Shown: positions 1-36,653 of the stretch, piece after piece
How positions within the stretch are numbered: position 1 is the first letter of the stretch
How the letters are laid out: each line of letters starts with the position of its first letter
Assembly (NCBI GenBank): GCA_963555755.3
Contig: OY820905.2
Location: forward strand, 2,720,001-2,784,000
Reading direction: 5' to 3'
DNA length: 64,000 nt
DNA from: Nitrospirales bacterium
GTDB lineage: Bacteria; Nitrospirota; Nitrospiria; Nitrospirales; UBA8639
Made by a program: the position numbers and the translations under genes
Notes under the pieces: model-generated
What the model saw: the letters and a program-made list of their open reading frames with translations, nothing else
Databases searched by the model: none
Told to the model about the DNA's origin: nothing

Positions 1-204
1 GCAAACCGAATTACCGCTATTTTAAAAGGAGACCGGGGCATCACCGGAGACACAGCCGTACGGCTCGGAACTTTTTTTGATACTACCTCCGCGTTTTGGA
101 TGAATCTTCAAACCAGCTATGAGTTAAGGCTTGCCGAAAAAGCCCTCCCACAAAGGGTTCGAAAAAATATAGAGGCGCAAAGGGAAACACTGGTTTCAGC
201 GTAG
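1..204 (+). CDS. higA: HigA-family (HTH/Xre) antitoxin, 5'-truncated by the window edge
   Basis: Frame 1 reads ANRITAILKGDRGITGDTAVRLGTFFDTTSAFWMNLQTSYELRLAE...*, with the HigA signature R.I..D.A.RL..FF...A.FWMNLQ..Y.L; not in the ORF track. Confidence 0.85.
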   Translation, partial: ANRITAILKGDRGITGDTAVRLGTFFDTTSAFWMNLQTSYELRLAEKALPQRVRKNIEAQRETLVSA

Positions 205-344
205 AGATCGCTCCAACTCTCTAACCCAAATCCTTCCAGGCCACATCCGATCCTTTCTATATTAGGGTGTTAGTCGCTCTTCCCAATCAGCCTGGCGTCA
301 ATTGGTACAAAGGCTTGTCCTTTTGGTACTTGAAGCGATACTGC

Positions 345-449
345 GAAACCGAAGAGTTCTGGGCCACCGCCCATAAAAATCTCAACCCCGGCAGCCAAGA
401 CGCCGAATTCGTCAAACAAGCCCTCGCCAAACTCCGCGAAGGCGAGACA
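345..449 (+). repeat. Coding-derived ~105-bp direct repeat, copy 1 (3' end of small ORF 267..458)
   Basis: gaaaccgaagagttctgggccaccgcc...gaaggcgagaca; encodes ETEEFWATAHKNLNPGSQDAEFVKQALAKLREGET. Confidence 0.9.
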
Positions 450-516
450 CCGTTTTAATTCCCGGAAAGGGCCTCAAGGGCACAAATCCAATTCACTGTG
501 CCCTCTCCCACAGACT

Positions 517-810
517 CTACTGGTTTCCAAACTCATCAGGCCATTTCCGAGAGGTGTGCATGACAGCAAGAATGCGAATCTGTTTCCCTTTGATGTAATA
601 GGGAAGGATATAGGGCAAACTCGGCACGATAAGTTCTCGAGTTTTGTCAACCCGACCAGGACGTCCTAAGTGTGGGTTATGGAGAAGGGAATTTCCTGAG
701 GTTTCGATTTTGGTTAAGACTCCATAAGCAGCAGCAGGGTCATCCGCTGCGATGAATTGACCGATTTCTTTGAGATCCTGAATCGCCTCTTTCAACCATA
801 GAACTTCCAT
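517..810 (-). CDS. RelE/ParE-family toxin
   Basis: W..EA.QDL.EI..FIA.DDP.AA...GRPGRV..TRELIV..LPYI..Y...IRILAVMHTSRKWP; its ATG overlaps the antitoxin stop (TGATG). Confidence 0.9.
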   Translation of the reverse strand: MEVLWLKEAIQDLKEIGQFIAADDPAAAYGVLTKIETSGNSLLHNPHLGRPGRVDKTRELIVPSLPYILPYYIKGKQIRILAVMHTSRKWPDEFGNQ

Positions 811-1061
811 CACCGCTTGAAGGACTCAACAACCTTATTCACCTCGGCAGTAGAAAAAAATTTCCCCCCTCTTTCAGCTTTTTTCAGGCGTTGACGGATC
901 CGCTTTTCTTGCCAGTCATACACTTCTAAATAGTGTTCAAGGGCTTCATTAATGAGCCAATTCCTAGAGCGATCAATTCCTGCAGCGATTCGGTCCAATT
1001 TTTTTTGAGTTTCAACCGACATCCTCACGGTCACATTTCCAGTATTTTGAGGCATATGCAT
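810..1061 (-). CDS. CopG/ribbon-helix-helix antitoxin
   Basis: VTVRMS.ETQKKLDRIA..IDRSRNWLINEALEHYL RHH pattern; directly upstream of the RelE toxin. Confidence 0.85.
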   Translation of the reverse strand: MHMPQNTGNVTVRMSVETQKKLDRIAAGIDRSRNWLINEALEHYLEVYDWQEKRIRQRLKKAERGGKFFSTAEVNKVVESFKR

Positions 1062-1157
1062 TTACTCCGATTGCAAAAGATTACAGTTGCAGTATGGCAC
1101 GGATTTCTATGAATTTCTAGTCAGGAACCTCCAAAGCTAAGGAATAGGATATTTAGA

Positions 1158-1262
1158 GAAACCGAAGAGTACTGGGCCACCGCCCATACCAATCTCAAAC
1201 CCGGTAGCCAAGACGCCGAATTCGTCAAACAAGCCCTCGTCAAACTGCGTGAAGGGGAAACG
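1158..1262 (+). repeat. Coding-derived ~105-bp direct repeat, copy 2
   Basis: 94/105 identical to 345..449 by manual alignment; 6 of 11 differences are synonymous third-position changes. Confidence 0.9.
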
Positions 1263-1357
1263 AAATTTTTATTTGGGTCTCCGCTCGATCTTCCCTAAAA
1301 AAATTGCCTAAAATCAATCCATTGTATGTTTTACCTAAATGGTAGAACACGCTATTA

Positions 1358-1466
1358 ACTGAAGAAAACAAGGCCACCGCTTCCAAGTACTTCACACGCG
1401 GCAGCCAGGATGCTGAATTCGTCAAGCAAGCCCTCACGAAATTGCGTGAAGGCAAAATCTCCTTCC
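1358..1466 (+). repeat. Coding-derived direct repeat, copy 3 (more diverged)
   Basis: Encodes TEENKATASKYFTRGSQDAEFVKQALTKLREGKISF; no in-frame start. Confidence 0.8.
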
Positions 1467-4402: not shown

Positions 4403-4420
4403 TTGGTGCCGAAGCCGGGA
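4403..4420 (-). repeat. att-like duplication of the tRNA-Leu(GAG) 3' end
   Basis: ttggtgccgaagccggga is identical to 9160..9177. Confidence 0.85.
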
Positions 4421-5101: not shown

Positions 5102-5190
5102 TTTATATCGTTTTTTAGAAGATTTTTTTTAACAATATGACATGAAGGAAGTACATACCCTGGTAAAAGCAATAGTAAGATTTTTCGTAA

Positions 5191-6639
5191 CTACTCAGGT
5201 GTGATGATCTTTGTAGTGAATTGTGCAGGCATAAAGGGGTGGCCGATCATGGCTTGTGAAATGGCTTGCAGCATGTTGCCGCCCTGCTTTCTCGCGGTAG
5301 AAAGGTAGCTTCGTATGCGGGCGAACTGCCTCGCGCCTTGAAGCGTTCGAAAACACCCGGATATTTTGAGGCGGAGCTTGATCATGCGGATATCCTGTTC
5401 TGCCAGATTATTAGTGAAGGGAACCTGTCTGTCATGGAGGAACGCGAGCACGGAGGCTTCATGCTCGCCAAGACGGGTGAGGAGATTTTGGGCCTTGGTC
5501 TTTTTGGGCCGGCCTCGTGACTTTTTCTGTGGCGGTGCCGGAAGGGGGTTGGCCTGCCATCCGAGGGTGAGAAGATCCCTGTATTGTTTCAGCCAGGGGG
5601 TTTTCTGTTCTTCCGTTAACTGTGCGAGTTGCTTGCTGACAAACACGTTCATCGTCAGCAACAGGTCAAACATGTGTTTGGCCCATGGTTGTTCGTGCTG
5701 CTCGAACAGGCACGTGAGTTCCCGCAAATGATGGGCGTTACAGAGGCCGTGGGCACAGTCATAGGAGAGATAGGGTTTCCAGAAATCGTGGATCAGGCGG
5801 CCAGCAAAATCCGGGAGGATCTGGAACTGCTCGATCGCCTCTCTTCCCCGTTTGGCGTGCACACCGTAAAAGGTCAACGTGGCCGTGCTGGCACTGTGGA
5901 GCCAGTGGAGCGTCCCGGCCGTGCGGACGCCGCTTTCATCGGCATGGAGGATGGGACTCTTGCCGAGCGCTTCTTTGACCGCAGTCTCGAACGGCGCGAG
6001 GTGCTCATAACTTCGGCGGGAGGCCTCGTCAATGGTGGCGTCGCTGACCGAGGCGCCATACAGATCAGCCATCATCTGGCTGACACGGCGTAAGGGGATC
6101 AACTGTTGGTTCTGGAGGTAGACCAGGAGGCTGCGAAATCTGGGACCGTACTGTGCCGGCGCAGGCAGGTCATCAGGAAATGACGCCGTGACCGAGCGGC
6201 CGCATTGGGGGCAGGTTTTGATTGCTCCCCGATATTCGGTGACGTCGAGTTTTGGCTCCGGCAGTTCAAAGAGCTGCCGGCGTTCATAGCCGGTGACCGT
6301 CTCGTTGGTGAGGTCGGCATGGCAGGAACAGGAGTGAACAGGCAGGTGGACCAGGTGGTCTGGGGTTTCCACCTGTTTTAACGTCTGGCCGGCATGTCCC
6401 TGTTGGCCGCCCGGCTTTTTCCCGGAAGGTATGCGCAGGCTCTTGGTTCGGGGCTTGGCCGGTCCATCGGACGAGGGCGGTTTGCTGCTGTTGCGACTGT
6501 GTTGGTCGAGCCGCTGTGCCAGTTCGGTGACATGCGTGGTCAGCGCCTGCCCCTGTTCCTGCAGCGCCAGGATCAGTTCGACGAGCGCCTCGGGGTTGCT
6601 CTTGGCCAGGATGAGGAGTGCGTCGCGGGTGAAGGTCAT
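5191..6639 (-). CDS. IS66-family DDE transposase
   Basis: NSSKPPSSD, KKPGGQQGHAG, CPQCG zinc finger, HADESG, CNAHHLREL, VPFTNNLAEQDIR. Confidence 0.93.
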   Translation of the reverse strand: MTFTRDALLILAKSNPEALVELILALQEQGQALTTHVTELAQRLDQHSRNSSKPPSSDGPAKPRTKSLRIPSGKKPGGQQGHAGQTLKQVETPDHLVHLPVHSCSCHADLTNETVTGYERRQLFELPEPKLDVTEYRGAIKTCPQCGRSVTASFPDDLPAPAQYGPRFRSLLVYLQNQQLIPLRRVSQMMADLYGASVSDATIDEASRRSYEHLAPFETAVKEALGKSPILHADESGVRTAGTLHWLHSASTATLTFYGVHAKRGREAIEQFQILPDFAGRLIHDFWKPYLSYDCAHGLCNAHHLRELTCLFEQHEQPWAKHMFDLLLTMNVFVSKQLAQLTEEQKTPWLKQYRDLLTLGWQANPLPAPPQKKSRGRPKKTKAQNLLTRLGEHEASVLAFLHDRQVPFTNNLAEQDIRMIKLRLKISGCFRTLQGARQFARIRSYLSTARKQGGNMLQAISQAMIGHPFMPAQFTTKIITPE

Positions 6640-7523
6640 GGCTTGCTCCGGCAGAGGGCCTGTCGGAAGTGGCGGATGAGGGGATAGAGATAAATTGCCT
6701 TCACCGGCACGCGCAGAGCCTTGTCACGGTCCTGCCGGGACCGGCCTTTGGTCTGCCCGACATAGAGCCAGTTCGCGGCCTGATAGCAGATACCTTTGAA
6801 GCGGTCTCGCTCCACAAAGGTCTCCACCAAGTGGACGGGATGGCCGTATTTCTCGATCCAGTCCTGCCGGAGACGTCTCATGACCCGGCCCAGGAGATGG
6901 CTGGCCAGATGCGGCACACGCACCCAGGGCAGGATGAGAAAGCGGGTATTGTTGGTCATGAAGTTGAGGTTGGCGGCTCGGGTGTCCGGCTCCCAGCCGA
7001 TAAAGGTGTCGCGCGGAGTGGTTTTCCAGGCGGCGGAACCGAAGAGGAGGCAGGCCAGATCCTGCCCGGAGCGATCCCGCACCAGGTACTTGAGATGTTC
7101 ACCGACCGTTCGGGTGAACCCGAGGTAGTGATGGTGGCTCAGGTAATATCCCACACAACTGGCTTCGTAGGAATGTGAGGTTGGAATATGAATGGACAGG
7201 GGCGTCAGGGTCTTGAGAGCTGCGTCGATGTGCGGGGCTTCGGGAGGCATAAACCCCTTTCGGAAAGGGGGGAAGATGTTGCGTCGAGAGGCGACACGAA
7301 TCGGGGGCAGCTTCAGGAGCCCGCGATGTTCGAGTTTGTCGATCATGCTGCGGGCGGCAAAGGTTTTCAGTTGTCCGGACGGGGTCTGCCAGCCCCAGTG
7401 CCGACAAATATGCTGGGTTATTTTATGGCGGCTCCAGTCAGGGTGCCGGCAAACCAGATGGCGTAACCAGCACAGATCAGATTGGGGGAGGCGACGACCT
7501 TGACATGTAATCGCTTCATTCAT
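6636..7523 (-). CDS. DUF4338-like (DruA-related) protein carried inside the IS66
   Basis: HHYLG, GEHLKYL, AAWK...RD.FIGW, NNTRFLILPWVRVPHLASHLL, ETFVE..RF.G.CYQAANW..VGQTKGR. Confidence 0.85.
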   Translation of the reverse strand: MNEAITCQGRRLPQSDLCWLRHLVCRHPDWSRHKITQHICRHWGWQTPSGQLKTFAARSMIDKLEHRGLLKLPPIRVASRRNIFPPFRKGFMPPEAPHIDAALKTLTPLSIHIPTSHSYEASCVGYYLSHHHYLGFTRTVGEHLKYLVRDRSGQDLACLLFGSAAWKTTPRDTFIGWEPDTRAANLNFMTNNTRFLILPWVRVPHLASHLLGRVMRRLRQDWIEKYGHPVHLVETFVERDRFKGICYQAANWLYVGQTKGRSRQDRDKALRVPVKAIYLYPLIRHFRQALCRSKP

Positions 7524-7595
7524 GGCCCCGATTATGCCATGGGTGGAGCCGTTAGTCCAGAAAAAAATCAGGCTATAGAAAATTGACCTGAGTAG

Positions 7596-8048
7596 TTACC
7601 AATCATCAAGCCAATCCTTAAATTCTTCACCTCCTAACTCAGATGCGTGAACGGGTCTTAAGGAAAATCTGGCTTTCCACACTCCCATTCTAGGTGTCAC
7701 TAAAGCATAGTACACCTTCCCTGCCTCAAGTTCGGCATCCATAAAATCAGCGGCTTCACTTATGACCATAAAACGAGTGGGTCCGGGGTTGGTCATATAG
7801 GTCAGTTTCCTTTTGGCCGGCACAATTCCAACAAATTCGTCCCTGTCTGGTTTTAGTTCATAGACGGAGGAAGCAATGGCAAAACCAAAAGTGGAAGGAC
7901 GCAGGAATAACACCAAGGCTTTTCCCGGATCCGGTTCTATTGTGGCTTGTTCAGGCAGCAACTCCCGCATGTGGGTAATAGGACCAGCACAACCTGTAAC
8001 CGTGAGCAATAGACAGAAAAGTGTTACGAAAAATCTATTTGGTGACAT
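7596..8048 (-). pseudogene. Lipoprotein gene truncated by the IS66 end
   Basis: GGAGG RBS, lipobox TVTGC; the stop codon is supplied by the IS terminal GTAA. Confidence 0.7.
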
Positions 8049-9160: not shown

Positions 9161-9244
9161 TGGTGCCGAAGCCGGGACTTGAACCCGGACGGGTTTCCCC
9201 ACACGCCCCTCAAACGTGCGCGTCTGCCATTCCGCCACTTCGGC
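9161..9244 (-). tRNA. tRNA-Leu(GAG)
   Basis: gccgaagtggcggaatggcagacgcg-cacgt-ttGAGgg-gcgtg...ggttcaagtcc...cttcggcacca; long variable arm, encoded CCA. Confidence 0.96.
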
Positions 9245-9306: not shown

Positions 9307-9348
9307 TCACTTGATGGATTGTTTCTCACTTTAGAGCTTCAAATTTTG

Positions 9349-10044
9349 ATGTCCGATTCCAATCAGCATTTTCGTTCCCATTCCTCAGTTGACAGTTCTA
9401 TCGGTGCTTTTTTCGACGTTGATAATACGTTGATTCCCGGTCAATCCATTGAAATCCGCTTTGTGCGATATTTGTGGAAAAATGGATTTTTATCCAAACG
9501 GGTGATCGTCGACAGCGCACTCTATTTGTTGTTCAATATTCTTGAGTTTTCCCTGTCCCCTCTTCGCGAACGAAAAATTTATCTTTTGGACAAACGGCCA
9601 GAAGGCATAGAACCTCTGGCGAAGTGGTTTGTACGATCAGAGATCTGTCCACGCCTGTCGTTAAAAGGCACGGCTGCTTTAGCTCAACATCTCCAAGCGG
9701 GGCATCATGTGGCCCTAGTCAGTGGTACGCCGGAATTTCTTGTGAAACCACTCGCACATTTTTTGGACGTGCCCACTGTCCTTGCCGCAAAATTAGAAAC
9801 CAATGAGGATGGCTACACGGGTCGAGTGCTTGCGCCCTATCCATATGGGGAAGGGAAGCGCCGTTTACTCCAAACCTTCGCGGAAACGCATGGGGTGAAT
9901 CTCAATCAAAGCTACGCGTATGGTGATAGTCCCGGCGATATTCAAGCGTTAGAATCCGTGGGACATCCACTCGTGATCAATCCCATTCGCGGAATGGCAC
10001 GGATTGCGAGGCAACACAGGTGGCCTATTGCCCTGTGGAGCTAA
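9349..10044 (+). CDS. HAD-superfamily IB hydrolase (SerB-like)
   Basis: FFDVDNTL motif I, LVSGT motif II, GEGK, YAYGDS.GD motif IV; start reassigned to ATG 9349 downstream of the tRNA. Confidence 0.88.
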   Translation: MSDSNQHFRSHSSVDSSIGAFFDVDNTLIPGQSIEIRFVRYLWKNGFLSKRVIVDSALYLLFNILEFSLSPLRERKIYLLDKRPEGIEPLAKWFVRSEICPRLSLKGTAALAQHLQAGHHVALVSGTPEFLVKPLAHFLDVPTVLAAKLETNEDGYTGRVLAPYPYGEGKRRLLQTFAETHGVNLNQSYAYGDSPGDIQALESVGHPLVINPIRGMARIARQHRWPIALWS

Positions 10045-10153
10045 TTCGTGAAGCGTAAGGCGTGAACACTCCTTATTTCTTTTCTTGCCCCCTCACCAAT
10101 CAACTCACACGCCTTCATCCTCACTCCTCACGGAACACATTCTCGGCAAGAGT

Positions 10154-10855
10154 ATGAATTCTTCGTCCAGTTTACCAGACAATCCATTGACCGAACTGTC
10201 GAATACCCCGCAGTCTTCTCTCCGAATCACGGAAATTTTTCATAGTATTCAAGGCGAGTCCACATATGCCGGGGAACCCTGCGTCTTTGTTCGGTTAACG
10301 GGGTGCCCGCTTCGATGCTCCTGGTGTGATACGGCCTATGCATTTCACGGTGGCACGGATATGAATCTGGAAGCCGTGCTGGACCAGGTCAAAACCTACG
10401 GCTGTCCTTTGGTTGAAATCACCGGAGGAGAACCACTTTCTCAATCAACGGCTTTCGAGTTGATCGCCCGTTTGTGTGATGAACGATTCGAGGTGTTAAT
10501 AGAAACCAGCGGCGCCATCGATATCTCGCCTGTTGATTCGCGAGCCAAGATTATCATGGATATCAAATGTCCCGGCAGTGAAATGGACGACCGTATGCGT
10601 TGGGACAATCTTCAGCACATCGCCCCAAAAGACCAGATTAAATTTGTCATAAGCGACCGTCGAGATTACGATTGGGCTGTAGGGGTGGTGAAGCAGTATC
10701 AACTCACGAATCGGTGTCCTGTATTGTTTAGCCCAGTGTTTGCAGGACAAGAGTTACGACCGCTGGCCGAATGGATTCTTCAAGACCGGTTGCCGGTTCG
10801 CTTTCAAGTCCAGTTGCATAAGTTTATTTGGGCCCCCGATACGCGAGGGGTATAA
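10154..10855 (+). CDS. queE: 7-carboxy-7-deazaguanine synthase (radical SAM)
   Basis: EIFHSIQGE, FVRLTGCPLRCSWCDT, ITGGEPL, QVQLHKFIW; exact start uncertain. Confidence 0.92.
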   Translation: MNSSSSLPDNPLTELSNTPQSSLRITEIFHSIQGESTYAGEPCVFVRLTGCPLRCSWCDTAYAFHGGTDMNLEAVLDQVKTYGCPLVEITGGEPLSQSTAFELIARLCDERFEVLIETSGAIDISPVDSRAKIIMDIKCPGSEMDDRMRWDNLQHIAPKDQIKFVISDRRDYDWAVGVVKQYQLTNRCPVLFSPVFAGQELRPLAEWILQDRLPVRFQVQLHKFIWAPDTRGV

Positions 10856-35534: not shown

Positions 35535-36653
35535 GTGGAATCTCTCGAACCGTGGCTTCTGTTACGAGCAGTCAACGGTTTGAGCGATGGAACCCTCACG
35601 AGACTCGTTCGCGAATTCGGTTCCCCTCAGGCCGTCACGGTCGCTTCCATGCCAGAGCTGCAGAACCGAGGGGGCATCAGTCGTAATGTGGCGACGGCCA
35701 TTCATCATGGCCCCAATCCTCAAGCCCGGGCAAATGCTGAGAACGAGGCCTGTCGCATTGCACAGCAGGGGGTCTGTGTTCTCACCGTACTCGATCCGTT
35801 CTACCCCCAGAAACTTTCAAGAATTGCCGATCCGCCGCCCCTTCTCTATTTGAGCGGGGCATTCGCCCCGAGTGATGATCGGGCCATTGCTATTGTTGGA
35901 GCGCGTAAAGCTACACCAACCGGGATGGCCTTTACAGAAGAGTTGAGCCATACACTTGCCACGCTAGGTTTTACTATCGTGAGCGGGCTGGCCAGAGGCA
36001 TCGATGCCGCAGCGCATCGTGGAGCCCTCAAGGCTAATGGGCGAACCGTGGCAGTATTGGGGTGTGGCATTGACACCACCTACCCTCCTGAACATCGAAA
36101 ACTTCGAGAAGCCATCGAAACCCAAGGTGCCGTAGTATCCGAATTTCCATTAGGAACGCCCCCACGGCCATTTAATTTTCCCCGACGGAATCGTATCATC
36201 AGCGGATTGTCCTTTGGCGTGGTTGTCACACAAGCCAGTCGTAAAAGCGGATCGCTCATTACCGCGCGCTTTGCGCTTGAGCAGAATCGTGAGGTGTTTG
36301 CCGTACCGGGATCCGTCAAAGAAGGCAACCATAAAGGGCCACATGGGCTCATCCAACAAGGGGCCAAACTCGTTGAAAACGTGGGAGATATCATTGAGGA
36401 GCTGCTCCCCCAACTTGACGAATCGTTTCAGAATGAAGTAAAGAATGCGGCTTCCGGACCGGTTCCAGCACCACCGGACCTCAGTACGCAGGAAAAGGAA
36501 ATATTTGACTTAGTCACGGACAGTCCCATTTCGGTCGATGAAGTCTTAGCTCAAGCTCGTTATTTTCCTGCCGAGGTAATGGGTATCTTGCTGGCCCTCG
36601 AGCTAAAAGGAGTGGTAAAGCCAGCACCAGGTTCTTGTTATATTCGATTATAG
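35535..36653 (+). CDS. dprA: DNA-processing protein DprA
   Basis: AIVGAR, IVSGLARGIDAAAH, FPRRNRIISGLS, SGSLITA; GTG start inferred because the longer ORF begins inside a MITE. Confidence 0.95.
   Translation: MESLEPWLLLRAVNGLSDGTLTRLVREFGSPQAVTVASMPELQNRGGISRNVATAIHHGPNPQARANAENEACRIAQQGVCVLTVLDPFYPQKLSRIADPPPLLYLSGAFAPSDDRAIAIVGARKATPTGMAFTEELSHTLATLGFTIVSGLARGIDAAAHRGALKANGRTVAVLGCGIDTTYPPEHRKLREAIETQGAVVSEFPLGTPPRPFNFPRRNRIISGLSFGVVVTQASRKSGSLITARFALEQNREVFAVPGSVKEGNHKGPHGLIQQGAKLVENVGDIIEELLPQLDESFQNEVKNAASGPVPAPPDLSTQEKEIFDLVTDSPISVDEVLAQARYFPAEVMGILLALELKGVVKPAPGSCYIRL

Follow-up and report, generated by a model that had tools for sequence, protein, structure and literature searches.

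We found that toxin-antitoxin (TA) modules in a Nitrospirales genome likely spread between related species by ordinary recombination via a captured gene end, with no integrase of their own. At 19 genes of this 4.6-Mb genome, an orphan copy of the gene's own 3′ end lies 0.7 to 3.1 kb downstream, and these orphan ends were probably left by homologous single-crossover entry of DNA from a related lineage that carried a gene tip, a TA module, and part of that gene's end. The case described in most detail runs into the left edge of the window, by which we mean the whole stretch of 64,000 nucleotides that was analyzed (positions 2,720,001 to 2,784,000 of contig OY820905.2). Positions without a prefix are those of the window; C1 denotes the contig, G000 the present genome, G001 to G022 related genomes, and L numbers individual loci or contigs.

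The array follows ccmI (cycH) in the order ccmI, higBA unit, copy 1, parE-copG unit, copy 2, relic higBA unit, and copy 3. An intact parent gene had been predicted to lie left of the window, and full-length ccmI was found there (C1:2716245-2717165; 306 amino acids; TIGR03142 above cut-off). It is the last gene of a ccm operon (preceded by genes for an ABC ATPase, CcmB, a CcmC-type protein, two CcmE proteins, CcmF, a thioredoxin, and CcmH) and ends 2,835 nt left of the window; the two CcmE-domain genes stand side by side (L001 11851-12930). Between ccmI and higB, also left of the window, is a nested IS4/IS630 pair (C1:2717210-2719731; L001 17209-19731), a later arrival in the higBA unit. Its IS630-family element sits inside the right end of the IS4-family element, and an 11-nt sequence is present on both flanks of the pair, though 196 nt of higB DNA is gone. 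The truncated higB (C1:2719750-2719880) is followed by the higA antitoxin gene (103 amino acids; TIGR02607, E value of 6e-30), which starts 107 nt left of the window and whose 3′ part occupies 1..204 on the plus strand. Copy 1, an orphan ccmI 3′ end (225..458, plus strand), begins 231 nt before the parent stop; its head is decayed (225-265, ~40 nt), while its tip is intact and ends with a TAA stop at 458. On the minus strand are a ParE/RelE-family toxin gene (517..813; 98 amino acids; PF05016, E value of 1e-15) and an RHH/CopG antitoxin gene (810..1061; 83 amino acids or shorter; PF01402, with NF048017 below cut-off). Copy 2 (1158..1294, plus strand) has lost its stop and runs on into a diverged copy of the parent 3′ flank. 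A relic of the region upstream of higB (1278..1354, plus strand) marks an eroded second higBA-type unit whose genes are gone, and copy 3 (1357..1466, plus strand; ~75 to 80% identical to the parent) closes the array. Elsewhere in the window, an IS66-family transposase gene adjoins a DruA-like gene (5191-7523), with 22-nt inverted repeats at 5179-5200 and 7586-7607.

This layout bears out the order of higA, repeat 1, copG-relE, repeat 2, spacer, and repeat 3 given in a preliminary description made from the window alone, and all three repeats indeed yield one peptide, GSQDAEFVKQAL.KLREG, in one frame. Copies 1 and 2 (345-449 and 1158-1262) differ at 11 positions, 6 of them synonymous and 5 nonsynonymous, and copies 2 and 3 have no in-frame ATG, GTG, or TTG after the preceding stop. 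The genome holds only four copies of the ccmI end, all within 4.5 kb, and their resemblance is not accidental (blastn E values of 3e-35 for copies 1 and 2 and of 1e-9 to 3e-11 for copy 3). They do not form a plain age ladder: copy 2, which matches the parent without a single difference for 92 nt, is nearer to it than copy 1 is. The spacer at 1278-1354 aligned to DNA upstream of higB with a score of 61, compared with 35 for the best shuffle (0 of 1,000 shuffles reached it), and the tip of copy 3 and its downstream DNA match the distal orphan of G006. As judged from profile matches, the adjacent ParE and RHH genes and the adjacent HigB and HigA genes belong to toxin and antitoxin families, and by gene family both units fit type II TA modules. 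A promoter scan gave nothing above shuffles. The repeats are coding sequence, no IntI lies beside the array, and the nearest tyrosine integrase is 61 kb away with none inside, in keeping with the earlier suggestion of an integrase-independent array.

Orphan gene ends were sought genome-wide. One scan looked for same-strand copies of the last 200 nt of 3,151 ORFs, with gene middles as the control. Such a copy was present downstream of 81 ORFs and upstream of 47, versus 47 and 48 for gene middles; after dispersed repeats were removed, 30 low-copy genes had a 3′-end copy downstream and 6 had one upstream. A second scan, of 4,466 ORFs, gave 29 3′-downstream versus 8 5′-upstream cases (P = 0.0008). 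The 30 candidates were curated to 19 parents by dropping IS-linked or internally repetitive ORFs, tandem paralogues, likely shadow ORFs, a 14-kb unit, and the carB region. Also dropped were g2310 (an identical copy tied to an IS) and g3143 (a 248-nt gap), both of which stay in the set of 24 orphans used for divergence. The parents encode CcmI, a NuoN-type subunit, BioB, MetRS, citrate synthase, EngA/Der, an HflC-type protein, CobW, acetyl-CoA synthetase, RapA, an OEP/TolC protein, an oligopeptide ABC ATPase, an FtsX permease, a histidine kinase, dienelactone hydrolase, a molybdopterin oxidoreductase, a DUF255 protein, and two unannotated proteins; short names such as nuoN, bioB, metG, and der are labels put on Pfam matches. 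Their orphan coding ends are 53 to 876 nt long, and tandem fragments occur at ccmI (three copies) and tolC (two to three) in G000 and G003. Units do accumulate behind ccmI, as the preliminary description proposed in calling it a cassette hotspot, but no special hotspot mechanism applies there, the locus being one of 19 such genomic sites.

Most of the cargo is of TA type. Fifteen of the 19 units carry TA-type genes, one is weakly AbiEii-like (bringing the TA-type total to 16 of 19), one is unassigned, and two are non-TA. The families represented are PemK-MazE, PIN with VapB, FitA, or PSK partners, HicA, HepT-nucleotidyltransferase, HigB, ParE, and the DUF433-DUF5615 and DUF4160-DUF2442 pairs, which we take to be TA-type. 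Starting from toxin loci, low-copy direct repeats flanked 12 of 54 PIN, ParE, and DUF433 loci compared to 2 of 120 random small ORFs (P = 2e-5), leaving 42 of the 54 toxin loci without such repeats. In a search that covered PF00589 and PF07508, none of the 16 tyrosine integrase matches, nor the one serine recombinase match, fell inside the 19 units. Other arrangements were also observed. One of the 12 repeat-flanked toxin loci is a mirror case, in which a PIN-toxin locus lies between copies of a 197-nt repeat that covers a gene start together with the DNA upstream of it (C1 60333-61802); more multicopy direct-repeat arrays surround ParE-family genes outside the curated 19 (C1 2575130-2576798 and 928069-930409); and longer units of 14 and 23 kb, with no tyrosine integrase match inside, lie between a gene end and its orphan copy (C1 1090571-1105921, locus L143, and C1 222977-247846).

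Most differences between orphan and parent are silent (24 orphans from 21 parents; pS of 0.268, pN of 0.043, pN/pS of 0.16). The nuoN orphan has 20 silent and 0 replacement changes, and some orphans are 96 to 98% identical to the parent. Since the differences are mostly silent, both copies diverged as working alleles, and the derivation from coding alleles that had been read from the ccmI repeats holds. The excess of decay expected in the 5′ half of the orphans was not significant (87 versus 66 changed or broken codons; P = 0.10). A single crossover of the resident gene with an incoming foreign allele predicts a switch along the gene from parent-siding sites at the 5′ end to orphan-siding sites at the 3′ end. 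When 13 loci were compared with the closest available relative, orphan-siding sites lay 3′ of parent-siding ones at 9 of 12 informative loci (within-locus permutation, P = 0.00015). At HK830 and der, where the relative bears a cassette of its own, the polarity was flat; it was reversed at acs and missing at metG. Three loci lacked it, and one had no orphan-siding site.

Empty sites exist in relatives at the DLH, cobW, yyaL, oppF, metG, and ccmI (G001) loci, and there the gene runs directly into the DNA that follows the orphan in G000. The orphans of one gene start at different points in different genomes: -287, -219, -194, or -186 at bioB; -102, -281, or -67 at the ABC permease gene; and -338, -231, -114, -63, -41, or -31 at ccmI, with variable starts at tolC and der as well. 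Erosion could account for part of this variation. The junctions have no motif in common. Among the ccmI boundaries, that at -227/-231 is fixed in several genomes and always follows higA; it was considered as an att site and taken instead as one inherited junction, since a fixed boundary always after higA fits inheritance of a single join.

The ccmI locus itself could be compared widely. The C-terminal 63 amino acids of ccmI were matched in 35 of 61 related genomes and more than once in three of them (G000, G003, and G006), all within the genus; in scans of metagenomes and genomes, in which many contigs stop soon after the gene, 10 of 72 loci had a second copy of the ccmI end. As the preliminary description expected, the TA cargo is strain variable, and relatives show other orders, other cargo, or an empty site. 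In G006, parE-copG comes first and is followed by a decayed fragment, vapBC-higA, and an orphan; in L059, vapBC-higA comes first, followed by an orphan and parE. G003 carries three non-TA genes (encoding a DUF3015 protein, an Lnb-like protein, and a third) and then a 338-nt orphan. Five metagenome contigs (L052 to L056) and contigs of two runs have the higBA unit with a whole higB and without an IS; IS4 and IS630 were set aside as vehicles for this reason, both being missing from that related allele. At the empty site of G001, ccmI lies 230 bp from a convergent tRNA-Leu gene with nothing between. An 18-nt copy of the tRNA-Leu(GAG) 3′ end lies at 4403-4420 of the window, 4.7 kb from the tRNA gene (9161-9244), and forms an att-like scar at the opposite flank of the interval between ccmI and the tRNA gene. 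In G003, an 80-nt copy of the tRNA-Leu 3′ end brackets a DUF4258 gene pair (L032, about 9325-10250).

In G000, the orphan head behind higA is joined to tip A; it carries an A-like tip in L059, tip C in G006, and another tip in L052, and L072 has a 125-nt head identical to that of L052 on a fourth tip. One head on four different tips points to repeated crossovers inside the repeat. Copy 1 and the parent differ at 24 sites, and there the working ccmI of G006 is parent-like early and copy-1-like at the last six (P = 0.001); its end is followed by parE-copG, just as copy 1 is in G000. By these shared letters and the shared neighbor, the tip of copy 1 is a displaced working end of ccmI. The proposal that each module brings a new allele and displaces the old one is upheld to the extent that copy 1 is such a displaced end; the travelling unit is something that we infer. 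Taken as a whole, the reading of the array in the preliminary description is supported.

Other loci show the same kind of variation. In relatives, bioB (G003, G006, and G022), tolC, der, the ABC permease gene, a second nuoN, and a recQ-like gene (G021) have separate orphans with different cargo; G021 and G022 belong to other genera. At DUF433 loci across the family, a flanking repeat of any kind was found at 6 of 27 full-length windows, with 3 of 30 too short, versus 11 of 150 random windows (P = 0.03). Only two of these repeats were clear gene ends (G000 cobW and the G021 recQ-like gene), so the prevalence outside the genus is lower or uncertain. At one parent (L137/L236), G000 and G005 share the last 83 nt without a difference but are only 91% alike over the rest of the gene, which suggests a tip received recently from a common donor.

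In the mechanism that we favor, the incoming unit would consist of a gene tip, a TA module, and a stretch of the end of that gene, all from a related lineage. One homologous crossover within the gene, presumably of the RecA type, would give a working gene with a resident 5′ part and a foreign tip, and it would push the old resident tip behind the module, so that the orphan would combine a foreign head with a resident tip. The incoming DNA may have been a circle excised between such repeats in the donor or, alternatively, a linear fragment, both ends of which pair with the same target, and it would have entered by natural transformation. ComEC (C1 2008920-2009792) and DprA (window 35757-36377) are intact in G000. 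The first junction of each unit would be an illegitimate join; A search of seven genomes of the genus found no Ku, which leaves this initial join without a named enzyme. TA cargo may dominate because addiction would save the units from looping out between the repeats. The identity of copy 2 to the parent over 92 nt means that plain serial addition fails without a conversion or a duplication-deletion step. Donors that are 10 to 15% diverged are poor RecA substrates, which counts against the proposed crossover. No excision product or circle was seen in the assembled run contigs; a joint in the X1 contigs that goes back corresponds to the IS-free higBA allele between its repeats.

Two other histories would leave similar remains. 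Each unit could be the eroded stump of an integrase-driven island or prophage that inserts at the gene 3′ end and rebuilds it, of which only the addictive module and an attR fragment are left. Islands that integrate at the 3′ ends of protein genes exist in the accounts available (trmE and dusA), Belot et al., in the portions of their 2026 study at hand, propose that TA-only islets form by losing neighboring mobility genes (PMC13617665), the tRNA-Leu remnant shows that att-like scars occur nearby, and the two longer units are present in the genome. We nonetheless consider erosion unlikely. The target genes are 19 unrelated ones, no integrase lies in any of the 19 units, starts and crossover zones vary at a single gene with no common junction motif, and no viral locus was returned when the ccmI end was used as a query; several orphans, such as that of nuoN with 0 replacements, show no decay, leaving little time for erosion. 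Alternatively, the end could have been duplicated locally at the first insertion, by break repair or template switching, and the working copy overwritten later by allelic exchange or gene conversion, so that the units do not travel. The 92-nt identity of copy 2 and the 96 to 98% identity of some orphans favor such a history, exchange anchored in the gene and the cargo would also yield a foreign parent tip, and Furuta et al., in the text available, suggest double-strand breakage for restriction-modification (R-M) cases (PMC2853133). However, neutral decay is slight in the orphans (pN/pS of 0.16); moreover, the permuted unit order and the one head on four tips need crossovers between unequal copies anyway. 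This makes local duplication quite unlikely in our view.

A transposase might also have made one of the two joins. A HUH (Y1) enzyme of the TIRtron kind would nick a strand at a TGACCCC end and join it to the gene, leaving the other end to be completed by homologous recombination. TGACCCC, which we take to be a TIRtron-type end, stands 4 to 10 nt before the orphan start at 3 of 24 junctions in G000 (HK830, DLH, and yyaL; C1 832600, 921875, and 2000200), versus ~0.0035 per 40-nt window. It was rejected as a general junction motif, as relatives show it in none of 16 junction rows; the three ccmI junctions lack it too, and it was chosen post hoc, so that a transposase of this kind is a very improbable source of the units. 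That the arrays are an assembly artefact is scarcely credible. Repeats are prone to misjoining, but these copies differ by 3 to 25% in codon-shaped differences, and related arrays occur in other genomes and metagenomes. Four runs of the same organism (X19, X22, X23, and X24) yielded contigs that tile the layout with zero differences; being possibly source material, these contigs oppose misassembly only modestly.

Single-crossover entry, if correct, has consequences beyond this locus. In its fullest form, which we put forward tentatively and rate somewhat below an even chance, TA modules of Nitrospirales would be recombinase-free mobile elements that capture any gene end, excise as small circles, cross species by transformation, home by host recombination, and build shuffled arrays; about one-fifth of the genome's toxin loci would have been gained in this way, and the tips of core genes would be kept swapping. 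Such entry implies that core genes, nuoN and ccmI among them, can carry foreign DNA over their last 20 to 250 nt. Orphan ends also give a simple mark by which gene gain without an integrase can be searched for, and the 19 sites serve as natural replicates, offering empty sites, permuted units, and a crossover that can be read. The entry of chromosomal TA modules was called poorly characterized in the consulted part of the 2026 study (PMC13617665).

A literature search that fell short of most subscription papers and supplements found no published report of TA modules flanked by displaced host-gene ends. TA-only islets, as far as the available text of Belot et al. describes them, are alike in being small TA-only loci between core genes with no mobility genes (PMC13617665). 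Homologous recombination is suggested there as their means of spread, with arrival on transposons or integrative elements, erosion, and exchange via both flanking core genes; duplicated gene ends, which mark the present units, were not encountered in that text. Islands that integrases place at 3′ ends (SGI1 at trmE and the dusA islands, in the descriptions available) share the restored target and the displaced fragment downstream, and integron cassette arrays share tandem accretion and TA cassettes within arrays. In contrast to both, the present units have no integrase and no fixed crossover, and their repeats are 30 to 880 nt of coding sequence rather than att or attC sites.

R-M systems are also known to insert with a long variable target duplication, and the founding paper for this is reportedly Nobusato 2000. 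In the sections at hand of the account by Furuta, Abe, and Kobayashi (2010; PMC2853133), an addictive module lies between long imperfect direct repeats with no mobility gene and with an empty site in relatives, as here. Those repeats often span a start or stop site, the species are mostly competent, and a cycle of amplification, release, and reinfection was hypothesized, in 2010 without evidence for release (PMC2853133). Their definition calls for a duplication that is variable and longer than 30 bp (53 to 876 nt at the 19 parents), for an insert below 20 kb without another mobile element (0.7 to 3.1 kb, with the ccmI IS pair absent from L052 to L056), and for a one-copy empty site in a relative (ccmI in G001; DLH, cobW, yyaL, oppF, and metG). 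It also calls for R and M genes inside, whereas the cargo here is TA-type at 16 of 19 units and other at 3. Compared with the R-M insertions described there, the present units occupy 19 sites in one genome rather than scattered cases and form tandem permuted arrays, and their divergence points to two alleles, not to a fresh duplicate.

The displacement of rhs C-terminal ends offers the closest mechanical parallel. The available text of Jackson et al. (2009; PMC2935791) proposes a circle excised by homologous recombination and entry by a single crossover. The rhs and ccmI loci are alike in having a direct-repeat array of variable-length 3′ fragments of the upstream gene and no recombinase gene, and in both the old tip would be shunted downstream by a single crossover, seen here as the parent-to-orphan switch at 9 of 12 loci. 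The two differ in that an rhs event, as described there, swaps in a new protein tip (a toxin) of a polymorphic gene, whereas the anchors here are many unrelated, conserved housekeeping genes whose C terminus is unchanged and whose cargo follows the stop codon. Strictly, then, the array is a member of neither the rhs nor the R-M class, its protein tip not being variable and its cargo not being R-M. As far as these sources go, the mechanics were known already from the rhs displacement model and the anatomy from R-M insertion with long target duplication; what is new is the TA cargo, the housekeeping anchors, the 19 sites in one genome, the permuted units, and the sequence evidence for crossover polarity.
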